This document shows positions 51 through 14,007 of a DNA stretch of 32,000 nucleotides, piece by piece; position 1 is the first letter of the stretch, and every line of letters starts with the position of its first letter. A program made the translations under genes and the position numbers. Source of the stretch: Promethearchaeota archaeon. Lineage in GTDB: Archaea; Asgardarchaeota; Odinarchaeia; Odinarchaeales; JBHLKK01. The notes beneath the pieces were generated by a model. It was not told the origin of the DNA. It made no database searches and saw only the letters and a program-made list of their open reading frames with translations. The stretch is from positions 1 to 32,000 of the forward strand of contig JBHLPL010000007.1 in the NCBI GenBank assembly GCA_048939465.1. The letters are read 5' to 3'.

Positions 51-1514
51 TCATTTTGGAATTCTACGAATACCGAACTTCTCCAATTCCTTTAGCATGA
101 TCCTATCAAGCTCTTTCTCTGTATCTTCTGAAAGCATCTTTTTGGATTCTGATTCTTCTATAATAGACTCCACTTCTTCCTTGACCCTCTTTAATATATC
201 CTTTCTACCCTCTTTCTCCCATAGCTTTCTACCGGTCCTGTCAACAACCTTTGAAGGAACGTAATGCTCTTTTTCGAACCAATTCAGTGTATGCTTTAAA
301 CCCATGAAGCTCCCGTTTTTCCCTCTGACATTGAGTTCCTCCACTGCCATCGTTTCGCTTGAGACTTCGAAGCCTTTGGCTATTCGAAGAGCCATACCAC
401 ATATTTCGTTGTCAATGACAAGCTTTTCAATAGATTGAGTATTCTCAAATTCAAGCATTCCTGCACCTGATATGACGTTTATGCCTGCCATAGCTCCCAT
501 AACGGCTCCTATTCCACTTTCAAATCCTGCTTGGGCATCCACGACTTTCGAGTCTGACATCCCGAGATAGGAATGAGTGGGTAGACCAAGCCATTTCCCG
601 ATCTGAGAATATCCTATGTCAATTAGGACGGTCTCAGCGGCCCCCATCGGAGTTGTACCATACCTCATATCAAATGCGCTCGGAGAACCCCCGTAAACTA
701 CAGGAGTCCCAGGTTGAATTGCTTGTGCAAGAACAATTCCGCTCAAGGTCTCGGATGTATGTTGAACCAATGCACCTGCAATCGTAACGGGAGCATTTGC
801 CCCCATCAGAGGCATTGAGATGAGCTCAACAGGAATTTGATGATGTGCGCAATCGATTAAGCTCTCTGCGGTTATTTCACTGAACATTAAGGGAGGCGAT
901 GGACAGCAATCGAATATTGCGGTAGGATGCCTGGAAAGGTCTTCTCCCCCTCCTAGAGCTGTTGAGAGCATGTTTTTCATAACAAGCGTCCCGTCGACTG
1001 TAAATGTTCCAGTAATTATTGGCTTTATGGAATGTTTCAAAACGAGATATAACCTGTAACGGTCAGCAATATCTGAAGGAATGTCACTGCAGACCAGAGA
1101 CGTGCTCTGTGCGTGAATGTTGGACAAATTCTCAGCCACCTTTATGAACTTGATAAAATCTCCTGTAACAGGTTTCCGAGTGGTTCCTGATTTACTGTCC
1201 AAGAAGTTGAGAGCAGCTGAGCCCGGATTAAAGTACACATTGTTATTGCCAATGTCAAGTCTCCCTCTACCATCGCGTGAGTAAAGAGCGAACGAAGTTG
1301 GGCAACTTTTGAGGCTTTTCGAAACAAGATCTTCTGGGAATTTGACTACTCCACTCCTATTATCAACTTTGGCACCAGCTTGAGCAAGTATCTTGATGGC
1401 TCTCTTGCTCTGGAATATTATCCCCGTCGTTGACAATATCTTTAGTGAAGCCTCGTAGATTCTTTCCATGTCTTCAATTGAGAGTGCACGTACTGAGAGT
1501 CTAGATTGCACCAT
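51..1514 (-). CDS. mttB: Trimethylamine methyltransferase (MttB) superfamily corrinoid-dependent methyltransferase, non-pyrrolysine type
   Basis: Family motifs SPL(M)F, MGANAPVTIAGALVQ, PGTPVVYG, DMRYG, SDSKVVDAQAGFES, GINVISGAGMLE, KLVIDNEI. The ORF has no in-frame TAG, and Met sits at the Pyl-equivalent position (YLG-M-SDSK). Start moved to ATG 1514, which has a GGGAGGGA SD upstream. Confidence 0.93.
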   Translation of the reverse strand: MVQSRLSVRALSIEDMERIYEASLKILSTTGIIFQSKRAIKILAQAGAKVDNRSGVVKFPEDLVSKSLKSCPTSFALYSRDGRGRLDIGNNNVYFNPGSAALNFLDSKSGTTRKPVTGDFIKFIKVAENLSNIHAQSTSLVCSDIPSDIADRYRLYLVLKHSIKPIITGTFTVDGTLVMKNMLSTALGGGEDLSRHPTAIFDCCPSPPLMFSEITAESLIDCAHHQIPVELISMPLMGANAPVTIAGALVQHTSETLSGIVLAQAIQPGTPVVYGGSPSAFDMRYGTTPMGAAETVLIDIGYSQIGKWLGLPTHSYLGMSDSKVVDAQAGFESGIGAVMGAMAGINVISGAGMLEFENTQSIEKLVIDNEICGMALRIAKGFEVSSETMAVEELNVRGKNGSFMGLKHTLNWFEKEHYVPSKVVDRTGRKLWEKEGRKDILKRVKEEVESIIEESESKKMLSEDTEKELDRIMLKELEKFGIRRIPK

Positions 1515-1556
1515 TTCAAAGATCCCTCCCCGTAACAAATATCAATATATTTGAAA

Positions 1557-2689: not shown

Positions 2690-3835
2690 TTAGCCTTTTA
2701 GTAGTCTTTTTGCAATAACTAGCCTCTGAATCTCAGATGTCCCTCCGTAAATGGATGTTATTAAGGAATCCCTCAAGAATCGTTCAACAGGAAATTCTCG
2801 TGTATATCCATAACCGCCGTGTATCTGGACTGCCATCCTGGCTGTCCTAACTGCGGTCTCTGAGGCGAAGAATTTTGCCATGGCCACCTCTTTGGTAAAT
2901 TTCTTGTTTTGATCTTTCAGAACGGCAGCTCTGAGGGCAAGGAGACGTGCTGCTTCAATTTCTGTGGCTAGCTCTGCTAGTGTGAATTGGATATATTGAA
3001 AATTGGATATAGTTTTTCCGAATTGCACTCTTTGTTTGGCGTATTCAATGGTTTTGTCTAAGGCTGCCTGCGCGATACCTACTGCTTGAGCGGCAACACC
3101 CATTCTTACGTTATCAATACTCTTCATTGCTAGCTTGAATCCTTCTCCTTCTTCCCCGAGAAGGTTTTCCTTTGGCACCCTGCATTCTTCGAAGACTAGT
3201 TCTGCAGTAGGCGACCCCCTGATTCCGAGTTTCTCTTCAAGAGATCCTACGGAAAATCCAGGAGTCCCTTTCTCAACAATGAATGCACTGATGCCCTTAT
3301 GTGGTTTCTCTCCCTTTGACGTTCTTGCAAAAACAATGACCGTATCTGCTTCGCTTCCTTGACTGACAAACAGCTTGTTTCCAGATATGACGTATTCATT
3401 GCCATCCAAGGTTGCCTTGGTTTGAATTGCTGTAGGATCAGATCCGGCGTTGGCTTCGGTCAATGCAAAAACGCCTAGTTTTGCCCCTTGTGCGAGAGGT
3501 TTTAGAAATTTCTGTTTTTGGTCCTCTGTCCCAAACATGTTGAGTGGTTCACATACTAGGCTATTGTTTACCGACATAACAACGGAAACCGATGCGCTAA
3601 CCTTCGATATCTCTTCTACAGCCAATAGGTAACTCACCGAGTCTGTGCCTGCGCCCCCATACTCGGGCGGCACAGTCATTCCCAGCAGATTTAATTGTCC
3701 CATTTTCTTGACGGCTTCTGCAGGATACATCTCTTCTTTGTCTATCTTGTCAGCTATGGGTGCTAGTTCTTTCTCCGCGAATTCCTTAACCATATTTTTT
3801 ATCATTTCCTGTTCAGGAGTCAAACTAAAATCCAA
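2690..3835 (-). CDS. Acyl-CoA dehydrogenase family flavoprotein (short-chain/Bcd-like; canonical catalytic Glu absent)
   Basis: FALTEANAGSD, GNKLFVSQG, KLGIRGSPT, RVQFGK, QIHGGYGY, IYGGTSEIQR. TTG start at 3835 behind a GGAGG SD. Confidence 0.95.
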   Translation of the reverse strand: MDFSLTPEQEMIKNMVKEFAEKELAPIADKIDKEEMYPAEAVKKMGQLNLLGMTVPPEYGGAGTDSVSYLLAVEEISKVSASVSVVMSVNNSLVCEPLNMFGTEDQKQKFLKPLAQGAKLGVFALTEANAGSDPTAIQTKATLDGNEYVISGNKLFVSQGSEADTVIVFARTSKGEKPHKGISAFIVEKGTPGFSVGSLEEKLGIRGSPTAELVFEECRVPKENLLGEEGEGFKLAMKSIDNVRMGVAAQAVGIAQAALDKTIEYAKQRVQFGKTISNFQYIQFTLAELATEIEAARLLALRAAVLKDQNKKFTKEVAMAKFFASETAVRTARMAVQIHGGYGYTREFPVERFLRDSLITSIYGGTSEIQRLVIAKRLLKG

Positions 3836-3920
3836 CTCTAGACCTCCTTTAGGCTTGAGGCGGGAAGACTCTCCCAACACTTCCTTGTTCTTGAATTGGA
3901 GAACAGTTGTGTTCCAACTG

Positions 3921-5791: not shown

Positions 5792-6700
5792 CTATAGATC
5801 GAGCAATTCTCGGGCATTCTTTGTCAGGATCTGAACCTTTTCCTTGTTTGTTAAATAGGGAGAGCTTCTGATTTCGGCTATGATTGATTTTATGCTCACT
5901 TCGCCTAGTGCTGGGTAATCTGATCCAAACAGAACATGATCAAAACCTACTTTTTTCCTGATCTTCTCAGAGAAACTCCTTTTTGTAACCAAATATGTGA
6001 CTGCGGAGATGTCAAACCATACGTTATCATAGTCTTCTCCCAACCTCAGGGCCTCGTCAAGCCATATGCCGGGGTATCGCGCACTGTACGATCCCATGTG
6101 AGCTAGAATTACTGGCACTTTCCTGAATCTTTTGATCATATACTCAATGTATTTTGGGTTTGCATCTTCCGAAAATCGCGGAAATTCCCAGATGTGTGGG
6201 TCACAACCCGAGTGCCACATGACGATTTTTCTCTTCCTCTCACAGAAACCAAAAACCTTTTTCATCTTCTTCTTGCTCTTCAAGGGACTGAAAAACTGAA
6301 GTGTCGGTATGAGTTTGACCCCTCTGAGACCTAATCGGTCTACTTCCTTTATCTTTTCATCAATATACGGTTCGTCTTTAGACAAGTTCACAGATCCAAA
6401 GCCTAAGAATGTGTGAGGATACTTCATCATTAGATTTGCGACACGCTTGTTATCAATCCTTGAAATCTTAAGAAGATACCTCATGCCATCAATGACTTGT
6501 GGACCCGCCCAAATGTAGAGGTCCAGCAGACGCTGAAGGACTCCTTCGTATATTTCTGGTCTATCTAGATCCTTCGCGTCCACATCTAGAGCAATCAAGA
6601 CTGCGTATTCAATGGCCGCTTCCTTTAATTCAGATAGCATGCGATCCTCGCTTATGTACTTCAAGAAAGGATGTAGATGAAAATCTATGATCCCCTTCAA
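5792..6700 (-). CDS. Amidohydrolase family protein (Amidohydro_2-type TIM-barrel metallohydrolase)
   Basis: IIDFHLHP (HxH), WHSG, LAHMG, FDIS, FGSDYP. Confidence 0.9.
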   Translation of the reverse strand: MKGIIDFHLHPFLKYISEDRMLSELKEAAIEYAVLIALDVDAKDLDRPEIYEGVLQRLLDLYIWAGPQVIDGMRYLLKISRIDNKRVANLMMKYPHTFLGFGSVNLSKDEPYIDEKIKEVDRLGLRGVKLIPTLQFFSPLKSKKKMKKVFGFCERKRKIVMWHSGCDPHIWEFPRFSEDANPKYIEYMIKRFRKVPVILAHMGSYSARYPGIWLDEALRLGEDYDNVWFDISAVTYLVTKRSFSEKIRKKVGFDHVLFGSDYPALGEVSIKSIIAEIRSSPYLTNKEKVQILTKNARELLDL

Positions 6701-6713
6701 GACCTATGATCCC

Positions 6714-7919
6714 TCATCTGTAAGGAAGAAATTCTCTTCCTAGTATCTCTCTTGCGATTATTAGTCTCATGATGTTTTGGGTTCCTTCAGCACCTATGGA
6801 GTAAGATCTTACGCCTCTCAGTCCCATTTCGAGTGAACATTCCTTGGTATATGCAAAAGCTCCAACCCATGACATTACATCGTTGATGATATCAAATCCC
6901 ATGAGTGGTGCTTCTAATTTAGTCATGGCTGCCAGCTTCGAAACATCGTGATGAGTAAATCTCTTCTCTTGGTACATTCTATCTATCGTCCAAGCAGCCT
7001 TGTAGCATAACAGTCTATTGGCCTCTAGTCGCGCAGAATTATCAGCCAACTCAAACTGAATCCCCTCGAATTTTCCAATAGGGCGACCGAACGCCTTTCT
7101 TTGCTTGATGTACTCTATGCCATACTCTATGGCACCATCTGCGGCTCCAACACATGTGGCTCCGATCAGGACCCTGGCACACGAAAAGCCCTCCATAGCG
7201 TAGTAAAATCCCCTATTCATTTCACCGACGATATAATGCTCTGGTAACCTTACATCGTCCATAGTAAATCCGCCAGTGGAAATCCCCATCCTTCCCATAT
7301 CCTCGAACAGTGTTGTGGTTATCCCCGGAGTGTTTTTCAGGGGCACAAAACAGAAAGTCATACCTCTGTGCTCAAGTTTGGGTTCTGTCTTAGCAAGAGT
7401 AAGATGTCCTCCACCGTTCTTCTCGGCTTCTCTGACTCCGCTTATATAGATCTTTTCTCCATTAATTACGCAGTTCTCCCCCTCTTTCTTCATCAATGTT
7501 TTTCCTGCGCCCAGTATGTCCGACCCTCCCCCTGGCTCCGTAACTGCAATGCCTATGAATGCTTCTCCTTTGGTTACTCTAGGAAGAACCTCTTCTTTAG
7601 CCTGCTCCGTGCCATACTTGTCGAAGATATAACCCCAGGCCGCTTCCACTAAAAAAAGCACTGGTATTGCTACACTGATATCTGCTCGGCCCAGCTCTTC
7701 GGCGGCGATCGAAGCAAGTGTAAAATCTGCTCCTGCGCCTCCATATTCCGGCGAAACCGTCATGGCCAAGAGATTCAACCTTGCCATACCCTTTATAATC
7801 TCCTCAGGAATTTCACCTTTAGTGTCCATTTCTCTTACTCTGGGTGTGATCTCCTTTCGGCAGAATTCTCTCACAGTCCTTCTAAACAATTCTTGTTCTT
7901 CGGTGAAGCCGAAATCCAT
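6714..7919 (-). CDS. Acyl-CoA dehydrogenase (archaeal subfamily)
   Basis: IAVTEPGGGSD, GEKIYISG, RKAFGRPI, GAFAY, SIGAEGTQNIMR (Glu present at the C-terminal catalytic position). Confidence 0.95.
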   Translation of the reverse strand: MDFGFTEEQELFRRTVREFCRKEITPRVREMDTKGEIPEEIIKGMARLNLLAMTVSPEYGGAGADFTLASIAAEELGRADISVAIPVLFLVEAAWGYIFDKYGTEQAKEEVLPRVTKGEAFIGIAVTEPGGGSDILGAGKTLMKKEGENCVINGEKIYISGVREAEKNGGGHLTLAKTEPKLEHRGMTFCFVPLKNTPGITTTLFEDMGRMGISTGGFTMDDVRLPEHYIVGEMNRGFYYAMEGFSCARVLIGATCVGAADGAIEYGIEYIKQRKAFGRPIGKFEGIQFELADNSARLEANRLLCYKAAWTIDRMYQEKRFTHHDVSKLAAMTKLEAPLMGFDIINDVMSWVGAFAYTKECSLEMGLRGVRSYSIGAEGTQNIMRLIIAREILGREFLPYR

Positions 7920-8061: not shown

Positions 8062-8991
8062 ATGGCCAGGTTGATAAAAAAGCTGAAAACCAGTGAGCTG
8101 GACTTAATTCAACAATGCACCCTGGGCCCATCAAATAAACCTATAGGGGAGGTCAGTCTGGGAGAAGAACTAATCATTGAAACCTGTGACCGTTACGGAG
8201 ACGTCGTTGGTCGAGAGCACCCGTTGGATGTCATTCATAAGAAGAAACTTCCAATATATGAGAATCCAGTAACCGGTCCTTTGTATATAGTAGGAGCTGA
8301 GCCCGGAGACACCCTTATTGTGGAAATATTGGATATTGAGTTGCCTGATAGGGGAACCGTAACCCTCAAACCCGGTTGTGGAGCTCTTCAACCATGGCTT
8401 GAACAACAACCTACAATAACCAAATCCGTGAGAATCCAGAATGGCAAAATCTATTATGAAACTAATCACGGGAAAATCGTCGAGCTAGCCGCCAAGCCTT
8501 TTATAGGGACAATAGGCGTGGCACCGGCCGTCGAGGCAATTTCAACATTCACGCCTGAAAAGCATGGCGGAAATATGGATTGTGAAGATGTGTGCGCAGG
8601 GAGCAAATTATTCCTGCCGGTGTCAGTTGAAGGTGCACTGTTCGGTCTGGGGGACATTCATGCTTTGCAGGGAGATGGTGAGATTTGTGGCTATGCGGTG
8701 GAAGTCACAGCAAAAGTCAGACTCAGGCTAGGTATCCAAAAGAATAAGACTATCGAGTGGCCACGTATAGAGACAGCTGATGCAATAGCAACGGTTTGCA
8801 GCAGCAAGCCTTTAGAGGACGCTGCTCGTTTGGCATACGTAGAATTGATTAAGTGGTTAGAGGAAGATTACGGATTTGACCGATACGACGCATACATGTT
8901 CCTCAGCATTGCTGCAAGAGCTCGCATAGCTCAGATTGTGGACCCGTTATATACGGTGGAAGCAATCTTGCCAAAGAGATATTTGACATAA
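8062..8991 (+). CDS. Acetamidase/formamidase family protein
   Basis: NPVTGPLYIVGAEPGDTL, PFIGTIGVAP, HGGNMDC, GDIHALQGDGEICG. Confidence 0.92.
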   Translation: MARLIKKLKTSELDLIQQCTLGPSNKPIGEVSLGEELIIETCDRYGDVVGREHPLDVIHKKKLPIYENPVTGPLYIVGAEPGDTLIVEILDIELPDRGTVTLKPGCGALQPWLEQQPTITKSVRIQNGKIYYETNHGKIVELAAKPFIGTIGVAPAVEAISTFTPEKHGGNMDCEDVCAGSKLFLPVSVEGALFGLGDIHALQGDGEICGYAVEVTAKVRLRLGIQKNKTIEWPRIETADAIATVCSSKPLEDAARLAYVELIKWLEEDYGFDRYDAYMFLSIAARARIAQIVDPLYTVEAILPKRYLT

Positions 8992-10037: not shown

Positions 10038-10970
10038 CTAAGGCTTAGGAATTGCCAAATCCCTTGGTCCCTTACCGGAGAGCTTGACTTCTGGACAATT
10101 CTTCTCAACGATATCCCTTATTATTTCTGCATATTTCACCTTCTCTCGAGCCATAAAAGCAAGCCAATCTGGGCTAACCCAAGGTTTGTAAGAATTACCC
10201 ACTGTGGGGCCAGGTTCAATTTTGAAATATACGGGGGCACATGTCCTTGCAATTTCTGGAGTATCATAGAATCTGACAAACCCACCGAAGCTGTCGAATA
10301 GATAGACATGAACATCTATCGGCATGCTGACTGAAGCTCTGATGGCGGCAAGTTGAGGTAGTGACAAGTCTCCCAGTGGATTGAATGTTGATGCACCAAG
10401 TATTTCAAGGACTTTTCCTCCTGCTGGGTTACCGTGACCTGCGAAAATAGAAACCTTCAGAACCACATCCTTTGGGATTTCCCCAATTTTCTTCAATTCG
10501 TTCAAGACCCACAAGAGTCCTTCATCGATGACAAGAAAACCTCTAAATCCAAACTCGATTGTTCTTTTAATATCTGCAATCACCTGTGCCAGCTGCTCTG
10601 ATCCCCGGAACCGCATCCCTGACAAGGCCCCCTCAGGAGTAACGATTTGTCTTCCGACATCCCACGGGGATCTCGGTCCGGGAGTGATAATTACCTCCAT
10701 TTTGGCGTCCGCAGCCGTTTTTGCAAACGCTTGAAGTTCCTCATCTGAAAGAAGTGTCGAACCCATAACCGTTGAGATTAACCTGTGAACAGGAACATCT
10801 CGCTTCTCGGCTTCATCGATCAAGGCCTCCAAAGTTGAAGGTCGTTCAACACCACTAATCTCCATTCGGTAATGGCATCCGTCTGGAAAACGTTTTTCTG
10901 AGGACGGAAGATCGTACCTGTCTCTTCCTGGGATTCCAATCTTTTCCAGCGCTTTTCTAACATTCTCCAT
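10038..10970 (-). CDS. Conserved TIM-barrel protein of unknown function (usually annotated as U32-peptidase-like)
   Basis: Motifs LPSSEKRFPDGCHYRMEI, TPGPR..WD, RFRG.EQL, GFRGFLVIDEGLLW, KVSIFAGHGNP, DLSLPQLAAIR, GGFVRFYD.PEIAR. GGAGGGG SD upstream (start ATG 10970 or TTG 10976). Confidence 0.75.
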   Translation of the reverse strand: MENVRKALEKIGIPGRDRYDLPSSEKRFPDGCHYRMEISGVERPSTLEALIDEAEKRDVPVHRLISTVMGSTLLSDEELQAFAKTAADAKMEVIITPGPRSPWDVGRQIVTPEGALSGMRFRGSEQLAQVIADIKRTIEFGFRGFLVIDEGLLWVLNELKKIGEIPKDVVLKVSIFAGHGNPAGGKVLEILGASTFNPLGDLSLPQLAAIRASVSMPIDVHVYLFDSFGGFVRFYDTPEIARTCAPVYFKIEPGPTVGNSYKPWVSPDWLAFMAREKVKYAEIIRDIVEKNCPEVKLSGKGPRDLAIPKP

Positions 10971-11102: not shown

Positions 11103-12536
11103 ATGAAGGAATTCAGACTCAAAGGTATTATGCCGGCGCTTGTTACGCCATTCACCAGAACAGGTGAGGTTGATCCAGGAGCATTCAAAAGACTGATTCG
11201 GTTTGTGATCGAAGAAGGAGTTACAGGTATCCTGGCTGGTGGTACGACAGGTGAGTTCATAAATCTCTCGTTAGAGGAAAGGAAGGCCACAATCAATCTT
11301 GCTGTAGACGAATCGAATGGACGTGTTCCTGTCATCGCCGGAACAGGTCATAGTTCCACAAGACAAACAATTGAGCTAAGCAATTACGCCTACGATGCTG
11401 GAGCTGATGCAGGATTGGTCGTAGCTCCCTACTATCTAGGAGCCGCAGATAAGAGCCTTTATGAGCATTTCTATCGAGTTGCTGAGGCCGTTGAACTTCC
11501 TCTGATTCTTTATAACATCCCCCAGTGTGCCGGTAATTATATTCCGCGTGAGGTCGTCGAGGATCTGGCCGCCATAGACAACATAGTTGGAATGAAGGAT
11601 AGTAGTGGCAACTTCCCCTACTTGATGAGCCTTCTTGAAAAAGTCGGGGACAAGATCAGTATAGTCGTTGGATATGATGAGATTGTTTTTCCTGCTTTGG
11701 TAGCTGGAGCACAAGGTGCCATCCTGGCCAGCGCCAATATTATTCCCGACATCTGGCTAAAGATATATGATGCCGTGCAAAGCAACCATCTAGCTGAAGC
11801 TCGAAAGCTTCAGATGGAGATTCAAAAACTAACCAGGATAATTACCCGTCATGGTGGGGCACTCCCCGTCAAATCTGCTTTAAAAATGATGAATCACAAA
11901 GTGGGCAAAACCAGGATGCCTATTGTCAGCGGAGGTTCTCTAACCTGGGAAGTCAGAGAAGAAATGAGGTTGGAGCTTGAGAAACTAGGCAAGATTAGAG
12001 CTGCGATGAAAAGGATTGAAAAAGTGGCAGAGCCCGTTAAGGAGCGTTTTAGGGACCTCGGTATAACGGTCGGTGACATTTCATCGCAGAGTCTTAAGAT
12101 AGGAGAGGGTTCGGCCGGTGATGGTGCCGAATTCGTTGAAGCAAGCATCGTTGCAGGATCATCTGAAGGAGTTGTTGGAGAAGGATATGCCACTGCGTTA
12201 ACTTGCCCAAGACCCGGTTATGAAGCCTTGACTGTTATTCTGGAGCCAAACCTGATGGTGAGGCCTCCAACAATAATCGTTCCGGAAGTCGAGATTAAAG
12301 ACATGAGACAGGCAAGTATGATCTATGGTCCCGTACAGGCTGCTGCCGGAATGGCGATACTGGAGAATCTTAGGAATAGGATAATCCCAGAAGATGCAAT
12401 TAGCAAGAATGTAATGATCCTAAAGATTTTTGCTCATCCTAGGGCCATTGATCGTTATAGTCTTTACTGGAACTGCTACGAGGCGATAGGAAAAGCTGTC
12501 AAGAGTGCTTGGCAAGGAGGAGAAAAAAATGAGTAA
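11103..12536 (+). CDS. Fusion: DapA/NAL-family class I aldolase (aa 1-298) + Fae-like domain (aa ~331-473, from nt 12093), paralog A
   Basis: GTTGE, PYY, LYNIP, KDSSG (Schiff-base K165). The C-terminus IGEG.AGDG.E...PNLMVRPPT...YGPVQ...IIPED...IFAHP aligns with Fae. Confidence 0.88.
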   Translation: MKEFRLKGIMPALVTPFTRTGEVDPGAFKRLIRFVIEEGVTGILAGGTTGEFINLSLEERKATINLAVDESNGRVPVIAGTGHSSTRQTIELSNYAYDAGADAGLVVAPYYLGAADKSLYEHFYRVAEAVELPLILYNIPQCAGNYIPREVVEDLAAIDNIVGMKDSSGNFPYLMSLLEKVGDKISIVVGYDEIVFPALVAGAQGAILASANIIPDIWLKIYDAVQSNHLAEARKLQMEIQKLTRIITRHGGALPVKSALKMMNHKVGKTRMPIVSGGSLTWEVREEMRLELEKLGKIRAAMKRIEKVAEPVKERFRDLGITVGDISSQSLKIGEGSAGDGAEFVEASIVAGSSEGVVGEGYATALTCPRPGYEALTVILEPNLMVRPPTIIVPEVEIKDMRQASMIYGPVQAAAGMAILENLRNRIIPEDAISKNVMILKIFAHPRAIDRYSLYWNCYEAIGKAVKSAWQGGEKNE

Positions 12537-14007
12537 GAGAAAAGGCGGCTGGCTAAAGGGAGTCATGCCCGCTCTCATAACCCCGTTTGATAAGAAAGGA
12601 GAAATCAAGGAGGATTCGTTAAGAACTCTTGTGAACTACACTCTTGAATGTGGGGTTACCGGCGTTGTTCCGGTAGGTACCACGGGAGAATTCGTCAACC
12701 TATCAATCGAAGAACGAGAAAGGGTCTACGATATCGTTATTGATCAAGTGAATGGCAAAGTTCCTGTGATAATTGGTTCGGGTGATAGCGGTACCAGAGA
12801 GGTAATTCAGCTAACAAGGTACGGAAAGGATGCTGGGGCTGACGCAGCGCTTGTTGTCACTCCATACTTTTTGAAGCCAACCTACAAGGAGATTTTTGAG
12901 CATTTCAAGAAAGTCTCTGAAGAAGTAGACTTCCCGATAGTACTGTATAATATTCCTGCCTGTACTGATGTTCATATCGGTTGGTGGACGGTCGAGGGAC
13001 TCGCTGATCTTGAGAACATAATTGGTATCAAGGATAGTAGCGGAAACATGTCTTTCATCATGACTCTGATGGAGAAGGTAAAGAAGAAGATTGCTGTAAT
13101 GTGCGGCTGGGATGAGATCGGCTTTCCTGCTTTGGCTGCCGGAGCAGATGGTCTAATTTTGGCAAGCGCGAATCTGATTCCGGACATCTGGATCGATCTC
13201 TATAACGCAGTTAAGGGCGAGGATTATGAGAAGGCCCGAAATCTACAGCTGAAAATACAGAAACTTGTAAGAATAGTCTGTAGACAAGGAGCAACTGAAG
13301 CTGTTAAGACAGGTCTGCAAATGATGGGTTTCGACGTAGGTTTTTCGCGTAAGCCAGTCGTAACGGGAGATATATTCCGCTATGAAGACCGCGAGGAATT
13401 GCGTCTGCAATTGGAAACCTTAAACAAAATAAGATCCAAGAGAATATCAATCTGTATTGACTCAAAAATTACTGAGAGTATGGTTGCTGCTATTCCTGAA
13501 ACACCTGATACAATTCAAGATTTCGCTTTGAAAGTCGGTGAAGCTTTGGCAGGCCCCCCTTCGTTTGAAGTTGCCCATATTGACCTTCTTATCGGGAAAA
13601 AAGATGGACCCTTAAAAAAGGCTTGCGATAAGGCATTGTCCAATAAAATAATGGGACATGAACCGAAAGTTGTGCTTCAAAGACCGCTTACTCTTCTGAT
13701 ACCGACCGTCTCGGTCAGAACAGAGAAGCAGGCAGCACACGTTTATGAGTTTGCCTCAAAAGGAGTAGCAAGAGCTGTAGAAGCAAGCGTGAAGGATGGT
13801 ATAGTTCCTGAAGAAATCTTGGATGAAATACTTCTAATTGCAAATGCTTTCGTGCATCCAACAGCTGTCAATGAGAAGAGGATATATTTTAACAATTACA
13901 AAGCAATGAGACATGCGATAAGGAAGGCCCTTGAAGAACGGCCGACAATTGATGAGCTTCTCCGCCTAGGTGAAACTGCCCGACACCCCTTCAGATACAC
14001 TCCCTAG
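12529..14007 (+). CDS. Fusion: DapA/NAL-family class I aldolase + formaldehyde-activating enzyme (Fae) domain (from nt ~13528), paralog B
   Basis: GTTGE, LYNIP, KDSSG (K168). Fae motifs VGEALAG..EVAHIDLLIG, FVHP, NNYKAM..AI.KAL, C-terminal HPF. ATG 12529 has GGAGG at 12516-12520 and overlaps the paralog A stop by 8 bp. Confidence 0.92.
   Translation: MSKRKGGWLKGVMPALITPFDKKGEIKEDSLRTLVNYTLECGVTGVVPVGTTGEFVNLSIEERERVYDIVIDQVNGKVPVIIGSGDSGTREVIQLTRYGKDAGADAALVVTPYFLKPTYKEIFEHFKKVSEEVDFPIVLYNIPACTDVHIGWWTVEGLADLENIIGIKDSSGNMSFIMTLMEKVKKKIAVMCGWDEIGFPALAAGADGLILASANLIPDIWIDLYNAVKGEDYEKARNLQLKIQKLVRIVCRQGATEAVKTGLQMMGFDVGFSRKPVVTGDIFRYEDREELRLQLETLNKIRSKRISICIDSKITESMVAAIPETPDTIQDFALKVGEALAGPPSFEVAHIDLLIGKKDGPLKKACDKALSNKIMGHEPKVVLQRPLTLLIPTVSVRTEKQAAHVYEFASKGVARAVEASVKDGIVPEEILDEILLIANAFVHPTAVNEKRIYFNNYKAMRHAIRKALEERPTIDELLRLGETARHPFRYTP

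Follow-up and report, generated by a model that had tools for sequence, protein, structure and literature searches.

Two translationally coupled aldolase-Fae fusion genes with complementary Fae domains: a putative hetero-oligomeric enzyme of an archaeon

Two overlapping genes, A and B, in a 32,000-nucleotide stretch of DNA from Promethearchaeota archaeon (contig JBHLPL010000007.1 of assembly GCA_048939465.1; the window) each specify a DHDPS-family aldolase domain followed by a Fae domain, and their products are probably the subunits of a single hetero-oligomeric enzyme, derived from a single-copy aldolase-Fae fusion (the S form) by gene duplication. The first-pass annotation of this DNA had proposed an obligate heteromer of the two proteins. 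That reading is now supported by complementary motif losses among homologues, by the co-occurrence of the two genes, by matching subtrees, by translational coupling, by a co-fold of the two Fae domains and by relaxed constraint on the unused faces of both.

The gene pair and its two Fae domains

The features of the pair are collected in Table 1. A and B are translationally coupled: the reading frames overlap by 8 nt, the stop codon of A (TAA, 12534-12536) lies just beyond the ATG of B (12529-12531), and a GGAGG (12516-12520) is placed 8 nt upstream of that ATG. Translation of B from the ATG yields 492 aa, which is also the length of its database form (P0003), and from an in-frame GTG at 12505 it yields 500 aa; the catalytic histidine of B is residue 350 in the first numbering and 358 in the second. 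Three other A/B pairs have an intergenic gap of 1-3 nt, and some Anaerolineae have 0.3-1.7 kb between A and B or carry them on separate contigs. In profile searches, the DHDPS family (PF00701) matches A with E 2.3e-75 and B with E 1.1e-75, and the Fae family (PF08714, cut-off 27) matches A with 114.8-118 bits and B with 128.7-131 bits. The Fae equivalog profile TIGR03126 (cut-off 118.05) is passed by B at 142 bits, with A falling slightly under it at 116.8.

Table 1. Features of the A/B gene pair and its surroundings (positions in the window)
Feature	Position	Strand	Description and basis
Gene A	11103..12536	+	477 aa (P0001); DHDPS-family class I aldolase and A-type Fae domain
Gene B	12529..14007	+	P0002; DHDPS-family class I aldolase and B-type Fae domain
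A/B coupling junction	12516..12536	+	Read directly from the sequence
Conserved neighbour	10038..10970	-	~310 aa, divergently transcribed; ORF open up to 11057
Fae domain of A	12099..12521	+	Pfam Fae positions 1-141 of 159, without C-terminal arm
A Glu346-Ala-Ser348	12138..12146	+	At Fae His22-Ile-Asp24; alignment to 1Y5Y
A ILEPNLMVR loop	12237..12263	+	P0001 379-387; retained, in the modelled interface; alignment, co-fold
A GPVQ	12327..12338	+	P0001 409-412; retained; alignment, co-fold
Fae domain of B	13534..13992	+	Pfam Fae positions 1-158 of 159
B AHIDL	13573..13587	+	P0002 357-361; retained, equivalents of His22/Asp24; alignment, co-fold
B PNL-loop deletion site	13675..13680	+	Between Leu391 and Gln392 of P0002; alignment
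B YEFAS	13744..13758	+	Replaces FGPAQ, GPxQ lost; alignment
B RHPF of C-terminal arm	13981..13992	+	P0002 493-496; retained, in the modelled interface; alignment, co-fold

The conserved divergent neighbour is U32-like by language-model features; no Pfam family was found for it, and its AlphaFold2 model has a mean pLDDT of 56.5, too low for a fold search. It accompanies the pair recurrently, not universally (6 of ~90 loci). A function for the pair drawn from gene neighbourhood was considered and rejected: neighbours vary by locus, and only this U32-like protein recurs.

The Fae domains were aligned with Methylorubrum extorquens Fae (PDB 1Y5Y; residue number = chain index + 1) as the reference, GDGAEFVEASIVAG of A lying opposite GDGNEVAHIDLIIG of Fae. 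The catalytic His and Asp are lost in A, with Glu346 at the His22 position and Ser348 at that of Asp24. The loop of A (EPNLMVRP) corresponds to APNLPCKP of Fae and its YGPVQ to FGPAQ, Gln412 being the equivalent of Gln88; A stops near Fae residue 150, so that the HPF arm is absent. In B, EVAHIDL and ARHPFRY are retained, and the gap at the PNL loop amounts to 5 residues by HMMER and 6 by MAFFT. Much of this had been read by eye in the first-pass annotation, and the alignment to 1Y5Y bears it out: Glu346 of A at catalytic His22, a PNL loop and GPxQ without a C-terminal HPF in A, and AHIDL (His350) and HPF with YEFAS for FGPAQ in B. Its coordinates and residue numbering are also correct by ORF and alignment check; the PNL-loop deletion in B is likewise present, at 5-6 residues rather than the 6-7 that had been estimated.

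The modelled A:B interface and the division of motifs

Co-folding of the Fae domains of A and B gives an ipSAE of 0.89, against 0.00 for the best of 3 controls; 58 of 80 solved complexes attain the mark used for such co-folds, as do 2 of 110 mismatched pairs. The three runs share 86% or more of their contacts, and the partner pLDDT is 86. On the A side the modelled interface comprises (in co-fold numbering) residues 60-68 (ILEPNLMVR), Gly90 and Gln93, and on the B side residues 15-19 (VGEAL), His29, Asp31, Asn118 and 163-167 (ARHPF), placing Gly409 and Gln412 of A and His358 and Asp360 of B (P0002) within it. Many of B's modelled contacts are made by an arm of ~22 residues (141-167, co-fold numbering). 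The model thus supports packing of the His/Asp/arm face of B on the loop/GPxQ face of A. It is a model of two chains with a Fae-type A:B interface and carries nothing on ring size, and its score could come from likeness to the solved Fae homopentamer (1Y5Y/1Y60).

In canonical Fae the coenzyme reportedly occupies the cleft between adjacent subunits, where His22, Gln88 and the C-terminal arm are said to be found, and the enzyme is a homopentamer (PDB 1Y5Y entry). On the co-fold model and this account of the Fae structure, which together underlie the assignment of motifs to faces, the Fae fold would have two faces that meet between neighbouring subunits: an H face made of VGE, the His22/Asp24 strand, ANxFVHP, NNYKA and the C-terminal RHPF arm, and a P face made of the EPNL loop, RQA and GPxQ with its Gln88. 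A working H face would be left in B only and a working P face in A only, so that a complete pterin and formaldehyde site would exist only where the H face of B contacts the P face of A.

The same division recurs among homologues. In rows from ~90 related loci (40 A, 33 B and 27 S), the loop and GPxQ are present in every A row (40/40 each) and the arm in none (0/40); the Glu and Pro of the EPNL motif are 100% conserved among A rows. Loss of motifs on the H face of A is not uniform, since 3 of the 40 A rows have the His and 28 of the 40 have the Asp (at the place of Fae Asp24). The B rows have the His in 32 of 33 cases and the arm in 31 of 33, the remaining two being cut or masked at the arm; GPxQ was found in no genuine B row, and the loop is missing from the B rows apart from two early-branching ones, in which it is rewritten. 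The S rows carry His, loop and GPxQ in 27 of 27 cases each and the arm in 26 of 27, and the S fusions of Bathyarchaeia and Lokiarchaeia retain all Fae motifs. Whether orthologous pairs show random or complementary losses had been put forward as a check on the heteromer, and the losses are complementary in every recovered A/B pair. Judged from the alignments, the complementary split is more than chance, and because it holds in every pair examined, A and B most likely function only as a heteromer.

Constraint on the faces, expressed as mean pairwise identity of P-face, H-face and other columns, follows the same division: the values are 0.62, 0.67 and 0.67 in S, 0.65, 0.27 and 0.46 in A, and 0.27, 0.62 and 0.51 in B. 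By this measure the two unused faces (the H face of A and the P face of B) are evolving freely, under relaxed constraint. These figures and the co-fold are not fully independent lines of evidence because the input of the co-fold and the definition of the faces come from the same alignments. The P face of B has a mean hydropathy of -0.92 versus -0.29 in S. Polarity as a general mark of unused faces is weak and was set aside, the shift being seen on the P face of B and not on the H face of A.

The arrangement of the two chains bears on what became of the Fae ring. It is unlikely that A and B are joined in a mixed closed ring (for example a pentamer or an even-numbered one) in which the degenerate interface serves as a purely structural contact. 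The homopentameric state of canonical Fae would favour such a ring, as would the retention of the whole core fold by both domains, but neither the ~22-residue arm nor the loop would be there to build the reciprocal contact, which would run through columns that are the least conserved in each protein (0.27) and involve the more polar P face of B. In the directional A:B reading, the reciprocal contact (H face of A, P face of B) would have lost its arm, its loop and its sequence constraint alike; with that contact degenerate, what was once a closed homomeric ring of Fae domains has probably been reduced to a directional A:B pair, and such a pair would suit the two-fold symmetry of the aldolase domains fused to them. 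The further idea of the first-pass annotation, an unusual higher-order assembly from a pentameric Fae ring fused to a normally tetrameric DapA, is speculative. If anything, B's missing loop and A's missing arm suggest that the pair no longer forms a ring.

Distribution, phylogeny and the aldolase domains

More than 1000 database proteins match the Fae domain of B, and all but one of the best 120 matches combine a DHDPS with a Fae domain. Their sources are uncultured Asgard archaea, Bathyarchaeia, Thermoplasmatota and Anaerolineae, and databases call them DapA or Fae; neither label fits the paired form. The pairs examined include bacterial as well as archaeal ones. Both A and B are present in 12 of 12 pair-bearing genomes (on different contigs in two), none of which has the S form, and neither A nor B is found in any of the 9 S-bearing genomes. 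A tree was built from the DHDPS domain only and is independent of the Fae motif columns for that reason. A, B and S each form one clan with moderate support (SH-aLRT 83, 85 and 89), and the subtrees of A and B have the same lineage order: Thorarchaeota, a Bathyarchaeota MAG, the window, Methanomassiliicoccales and Anaerolineae. The rooted tree places B as sister to (A+S) with support of 82, too weak to give the direction of duplication, with S as the ancestral or the sister form.

These facts also bear on whether A and B might be independent homo-oligomers whose functions diverged after duplication, their motifs reflecting different ligands and their adjacency co-regulation. Paralogues in one operon often do differ in function, each aldolase domain seems catalytically complete, and in a few Anaerolineae the genes are not adjacent. 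Yet all interfaces of an A homomer would be without the arm (40/40 rows) and, in 37/40 rows, without the His, and all those of a B homomer without the loop and Gln88; the motifs that each protein has kept hardly vary, and constraint is lowest on the face it has lost. Among the genomes examined A and B never occur alone or with S, and their subtrees agree in lineage order. We regard independent homo-oligomers as very improbable.

Both N-terminal domains pass the dapA equivalog profile (TIGR00674, cut-off 206) at 217 and 226 bits, and in A, B and S the Schiff-base Lys161, Tyr133 and Thr44/45 are retained in KDSSG, YNIP and GTTGEF. The aspartate-semialdehyde-binding Arg138 is replaced by Cys in both (YNIPQC and YNIPAC versus YNVPSR of Methanocaldococcus jannaschii DapA). 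A search of the window's genome (91% complete) detected no other DHDPS-family gene, and DapB_N has weak matches only (31 bits in an ORF of 366 aa and 22 bits in one of 333 aa). For these three reasons the database label 'DapA' is probably wrong: the aldolase halves of A and B are probably not DapA. Complementarity at the interdigitating Tyr107 (Tyr in A, Phe in B) was rejected as a class feature, since it holds in the window only; across the classes this position is mostly Phe in A and variable in B.

Both aldolase domains thus have the Schiff-base machinery without the substrate arginine of DapA. By analogy with Fae-Hps, the holoenzyme would most likely carry out an aldol reaction that depends on pyruvate or a 2-oxoacid and in which formaldehyde is set free or taken up, and would couple it to the methylene-H4MPT pool.

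The Fae module of an A/B heteromer might, on the other hand, no longer be a formaldehyde/H4MPT enzyme at all and bind another pterin, a folate or another aldehyde; in one variant, it would be a PanB-like hydroxymethyl-transfer site that feeds the aldolase directly. The window's genome already encodes a canonical Fae-Hps (C57:2724-3200) adjoining Mch, the H4MPT-pathway marker, and the PF08714 scores of A and B are far under its 244 bits. Of 3 pair-bearing Chloroflexota MAGs checked for Mch, 2 showed none, and the cofactor in Chloroflexota pair-bearers may differ from H4MPT. Against this stand the persistence of all canonical catalytic and binding motifs, strongly constrained, on A or on B, and the finding of no other Fae in the pair-bearing Thorarchaeota and Anaerolineae genomes checked, which makes the pair the sole candidate for Fae activity there. 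Loss of the formaldehyde/H4MPT function is, on balance, distinctly improbable.

The most specific form of the heteromer reading is that duplication turned a homo-oligomeric ring into a heterodimer, obligate and directional, that has one composite site and catalyses an undescribed C1 transfer between methylene-H4MPT and pyruvate or another 2-oxoacid, for example 4-hydroxy-2-oxobutanoate <-> pyruvate + methylene-H4MPT. We hold it tentatively, as possible but somewhat doubtful in its entirety. If true, the obligate heterodimer would resolve the clash between five-fold Fae and two-fold aldolase symmetry, and the C1 transfer would newly connect the C1 pool of archaea to central metabolism in Asgard archaea, Bathyarchaeia, Thermoplasmatota and Anaerolineae. 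Should A and B make up a single heteromeric enzyme, metabolic models of these lineages, which are central in debates on acetogenesis, methylotrophy and eukaryote origin, lack a reaction between the H4MPT C1 pool and a 2-oxoacid. A family that has an ancestral-like single-copy form beside the split pair is also a clean natural example of duplication partitioning a composite interface site.

Comparison with known systems

A description of a DHDPS/DapA-Fae fusion pair was not found in the literature searched. M. extorquens Fae (1Y5Y/1Y60) is of the same fold and family (E 9e-16 for A and 1e-19 for B to 1Y5Y), and A and B jointly carry its His22/Asp24, PNL loop, GPxQ with Gln88 and HPF arm. It is, however, a stand-alone homopentamer with all motifs in each subunit, whereas here they are divided over two paralogous chains, His22/Asp24 and the C-terminal HPF arm being found in B only and the PNL loop with GPxQ in A only; unlike that enzyme, A and B each have a DHDPS-family aldolase in front of the Fae domain, and of the two kinds of interface one seems to have fallen out of use.

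DapA (TIGR00674; best solved match M. jannaschii 2YXG) has the Schiff-base residues in common with the pair, but not Arg138. The S type (Bathyarchaeia, Lokiarchaeia (Promethearchaeota) and Borrarchaeum) has the architecture of A and B and the same GTTGEF, YNIPxC and KDSSG, and is their sister or ancestral form; it differs in being one gene with all Fae motifs in each chain (PF08714 190-213 bits) and never occurs with A or B.

The bifunctional Fae-Hps found in methanogens and further archaea (NF009833; for example M. jannaschii, Methanosarcina) likewise joins Fae to a formaldehyde-handling enzyme of aldolase type, and this shared fusion suggests, by analogy, a role for the pair in formaldehyde capture or delivery. 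The order of domains is the reverse, Fae being N-terminal in Fae-Hps, and the partner there is hexulose-6-phosphate synthase, an OMP-decarboxylase-like barrel, rather than a Schiff-base PF00701 DHDPS aldolase. Fae-Hps also keeps a complete Fae site in one gene, which in A and B is split.

Fae motifs of the gene pair

Genes A and B of the window (see the table below) each encode a fusion in which a DHDPS-family aldolase domain at the N terminus is followed by Fae at the C terminus. For the DHDPS profile PF00701 the E values are 2e-75 (A) and 1e-75 (B), and for the Fae profile PF08714 the scores are 114.8 and 128.7 bits, respectively, with a cut-off of 27. The nearest named homolog of A (78% identity) carries the label Candidatus Hodarchaeota. 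The ATG at 12529 is most likely the start of B: a protein begun there has the 492 aa of the database entry, GGAGG (12516-12520) stands ahead of it, and the resulting gene overlaps A through its stop codon (TAA, 12534-12536) by 8 nt. A short overlap with a preceding GGAGG is typical of translationally coupled subunits.

Genes of the pair and its flanks in the window
Feature	Position	Strand	Basis or remark
Gene A, DHDPS-Fae fusion, 477 aa	11103-12536	+	ORF, profile matches
Gene B, DHDPS-Fae fusion	12505 or 12529-14007	+	ORF, profile matches; alternative starts
~310-aa protein, highly conserved, divergent from gene A	10038-10970	-	ORF open to 11057; likely start Met30 at 10970
MttB-family methyltransferase homolog	51-1538	-	
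Acyl-CoA dehydrogenase	2690-3880	-	
Acyl-CoA dehydrogenase	6714-7919	-	
Formamidase/acetamidase-family protein	8062-8991	+	

The first-pass annotation had proposed that the two Fae domains degenerated in complementary fashion and form an obligate A/B heteromer. Alignment of both domains with the Fae structure of M. extorquens (1Y5Y, whose residue numbers equal the chain index plus 1) bears out the motif assignments behind that proposal. Protein A has Glu346 in the place of the catalytic His22 and Ser348 at Asp24; it retains the loop (EPNLMVRP) and GPxQ (as YGPVQ), and it lacks the HPF arm because it ends about 20 residues early. Protein B retains EVAHIDL and ARHPFRY, has YEFAS at the FGPAQ of Fae, and is missing the PNL loop, the gap being 5-6 residues rather than the ~6-7 originally counted. 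In Fae itself, methylene-H4MPT reportedly sits in a cleft between neighboring subunits; His22 is said to be the acid catalyst, the amide of Gln88 to flip upon binding, and the C-terminal arm to turn ordered. Two faces of the domain, defined from the residue lists of the co-fold described below, are distinguished here: the H face (the His22/Asp24 strand, VGE, ANxFVHP, NNYKA and the RHPF arm) and the P face (the EPNL loop, RQA and GPxQ).

Complementarity and descent of the pair

Scanning a single genome per species yielded 80 loci, to which whole-genome searches and contig look-ups added more. They sort into two kinds: single-copy fusions (S), found in Bathyarchaeia, Promethearchaeota (Lokiarchaeia) and Borrarchaeum, and A-then-B pairs, found in the window, in Anaerolineae and other Chloroflexota, in Thorarchaeota and Methanomassiliicoccales, on one Thermoplasmata chromosome and in one Bathyarchaeota MAG. 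The S fusions retain the His, the loop and GPxQ in 27/27 cases each and the arm in 26/27. The motif split of the window recurs in the pairs of other genomes, with complementary losses: the loop and GPxQ are present in every one of the 40 A rows, of which none has the arm and only 3 have the His, while among the 33 B rows the His is kept in 32 and the arm in 31 (the exceptions are cut or masked rows), GPxQ is absent from every genuine row, and all but two early-branching rows show the loop deletion, those two having a loop of unchanged length and rewritten sequence. Column comparison divides S-invariant positions between the classes. A alone retains the EPNL loop, Arg and Ala in RQA, and Gly, Pro and Gln in GPxQ; B alone retains Glu in VGE, Ala-His, Asn and Phe in ANVFVHP, Asn in NNYKA, three Arg, and His-Pro in the arm.

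Both A and B are present in 12 of the 12 pair-bearing genomes searched, two of which, Anaerolineae MAGs, carry them on separate contigs. The S form is absent from all 12, and A or B from all nine S-bearing genomes searched; by this co-occurrence and mutual exclusion, A + B behaves as a replacement of S. A tree was built from the DHDPS domain only, so that the Fae motif columns play no part in it. A, B and S each form one clan (SH-aLRT 83, 85 and 89), and the order of lineages is identical in the A and B subtrees. The matching subtrees fit a single duplication, with the pair then inherited or transferred jointly between archaea and bacteria; root support (82) is too weak to call S ancestral.

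Several individual loci merit comment. The two early-branching B genes (L004:5905-7476 and L097:8001-9494) have full-length PNL loops reading LGSKTVKP and FGSKPVKP, respectively, which, judged by sequence, look like an intermediate stage in degeneration of the P face. In an S-type fusion on Bathyarchaeota chromosome OY970176 (L044:5980-7465), a frameshift seemingly separates the aldolase portion from that of Fae (ORFs 5980-7140 and 7034-7465); the gene may be a pseudogene, or a sequencing error may be responsible. Contigs C241 and C90 of the Anaerolineae MAG G004 hold two A-type and two B-type fragments, with one in-frame TGA within the Fae match of each A-type fragment (C241:1562-2017, C90:57-515); a second pair, a strain mixture and an assembly error are all possible.

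The modeled interface of the Fae domains

The A and B Fae domains were co-folded, each with an alignment of 24 orthologs. The ipSAE is 0.89 (best of three controls, 0.00), passing a mark that solved complexes reach in 58 of 80 cases and mismatched pairs in 2 of 110; three runs share at least 86% of contacts, with a partner pLDDT of 86. This outcome supports predicted A-B binding. The homomeric Fae interface has been solved, so the pass may mirror likeness to that structure, not binding. The informative part of the prediction is the identity of the modeled interface: two head-to-tail orientations are possible, and the model picks the one in which the retained motifs of B face the retained motifs of A, with 60-68 (ILEPNLMVR), Gly90 and Gln93 on the A side and 15-19 (VGEAL), His29, Asp31, Asn118 and 163-167 (ARHPF) on the B side (numbered within the isolated domain constructs).

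Mean pairwise identity, computed per class over P-face, H-face and all remaining columns, is 0.62, 0.67 and 0.67 in S, 0.65, 0.27 and 0.46 in A, and 0.27, 0.62 and 0.51 in B. In both A and B the face that is used is the most conserved and the unused face the least. This contrast, the loss of the arm from A and a P face of B that has grown more polar argue that B(H):A(P) is the sole contact maintained, which makes an open heterodimer likelier than a closed ring for the Fae module. Conserved complementarity, co-occurrence, matching descent, translational coupling and the co-fold model together support the original proposal, and A + B is a predicted heteromer. The division of one Fae active site over two paralogous aldolase fusions, like the DHDPS-Fae fusion as such, may be undescribed: a search of literature that included few subscription journals located no paper on a DHDPS-Fae fusion or a split Fae, so novelty is weakly evidenced.

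Aldolase domains, neighboring genes and likely chemistry

The aldolase domains of A, B and S retain GTTGEF, YNIP and KDSSG (with the Schiff-base Lys); A and B both have Cys at Arg138 of DapA, the residue that binds aspartate semialdehyde. A and B are the sole DHDPS-family genes found in the 91%-complete window genome, where DapB is represented by weak DapB_N matches alone, and on both counts they are very unlikely to be the DapA of the lysine pathway. The aldolase domains, too, have class-specific complementary columns, some close to the loop of the tight dimer and others following YNIP (window 11430-11560 and 12860-12990). Following YNIP, a Trp shared by S and B is Arg in A, and an Asp (EDL) shared by S and A is Gly in B; close to the PYxLKP dimer loop, Lys is replaced by His in A and Gly by Glu in B. 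These substitutions hint that the aldolase dimer may also pair as A:B.

The genes flanking the pair vary among genomes, with the exception of the ~310-aa protein. Homologs of it (61-75% identity) immediately precede the pair in Chloroflexota loci L006, L021 and L053 and in metagenome locus L097; in Hermodarchaeota loci L062 and L063, both cut at the contig end, a homolog lies upstream of the aldolase gene. No Pfam family was found for it; language-model features suggest a likeness to U32-like clusters (score 0.98), and its AlphaFold2 model, with an alternating strand/helix pattern, is poor (pLDDT 56.5). The MttB-family, acyl-CoA dehydrogenase and formamidase/acetamidase-family genes of the window do not recur beside the pair elsewhere.

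Canonical Fae was not found in the Thorarchaeota chromosome CP070658 (G010) or the Anaerolineae MAGs G001-G005, in which the A/B pair is the only Fae-family match; a check for Mch in Chloroflexota MAGs G001, G003 and G005 gave no match in G001 and G005, so the cofactor there may be a different one. In the window genome, Mch and a canonical Fae-Hps (410-aa ORF, 244 bits to PF08714) adjoin divergently on another contig (C57:1532-3200, L001). The H4MPT pathway is thus present, and the organism has a complete ordinary Fae besides the pair. With Fae-Hps as the analogy, the simplest reading of the fusion would be an aldolase acting on a 2-oxoacid, with formaldehyde released or consumed, beside a site joining formaldehyde to H4MPT.
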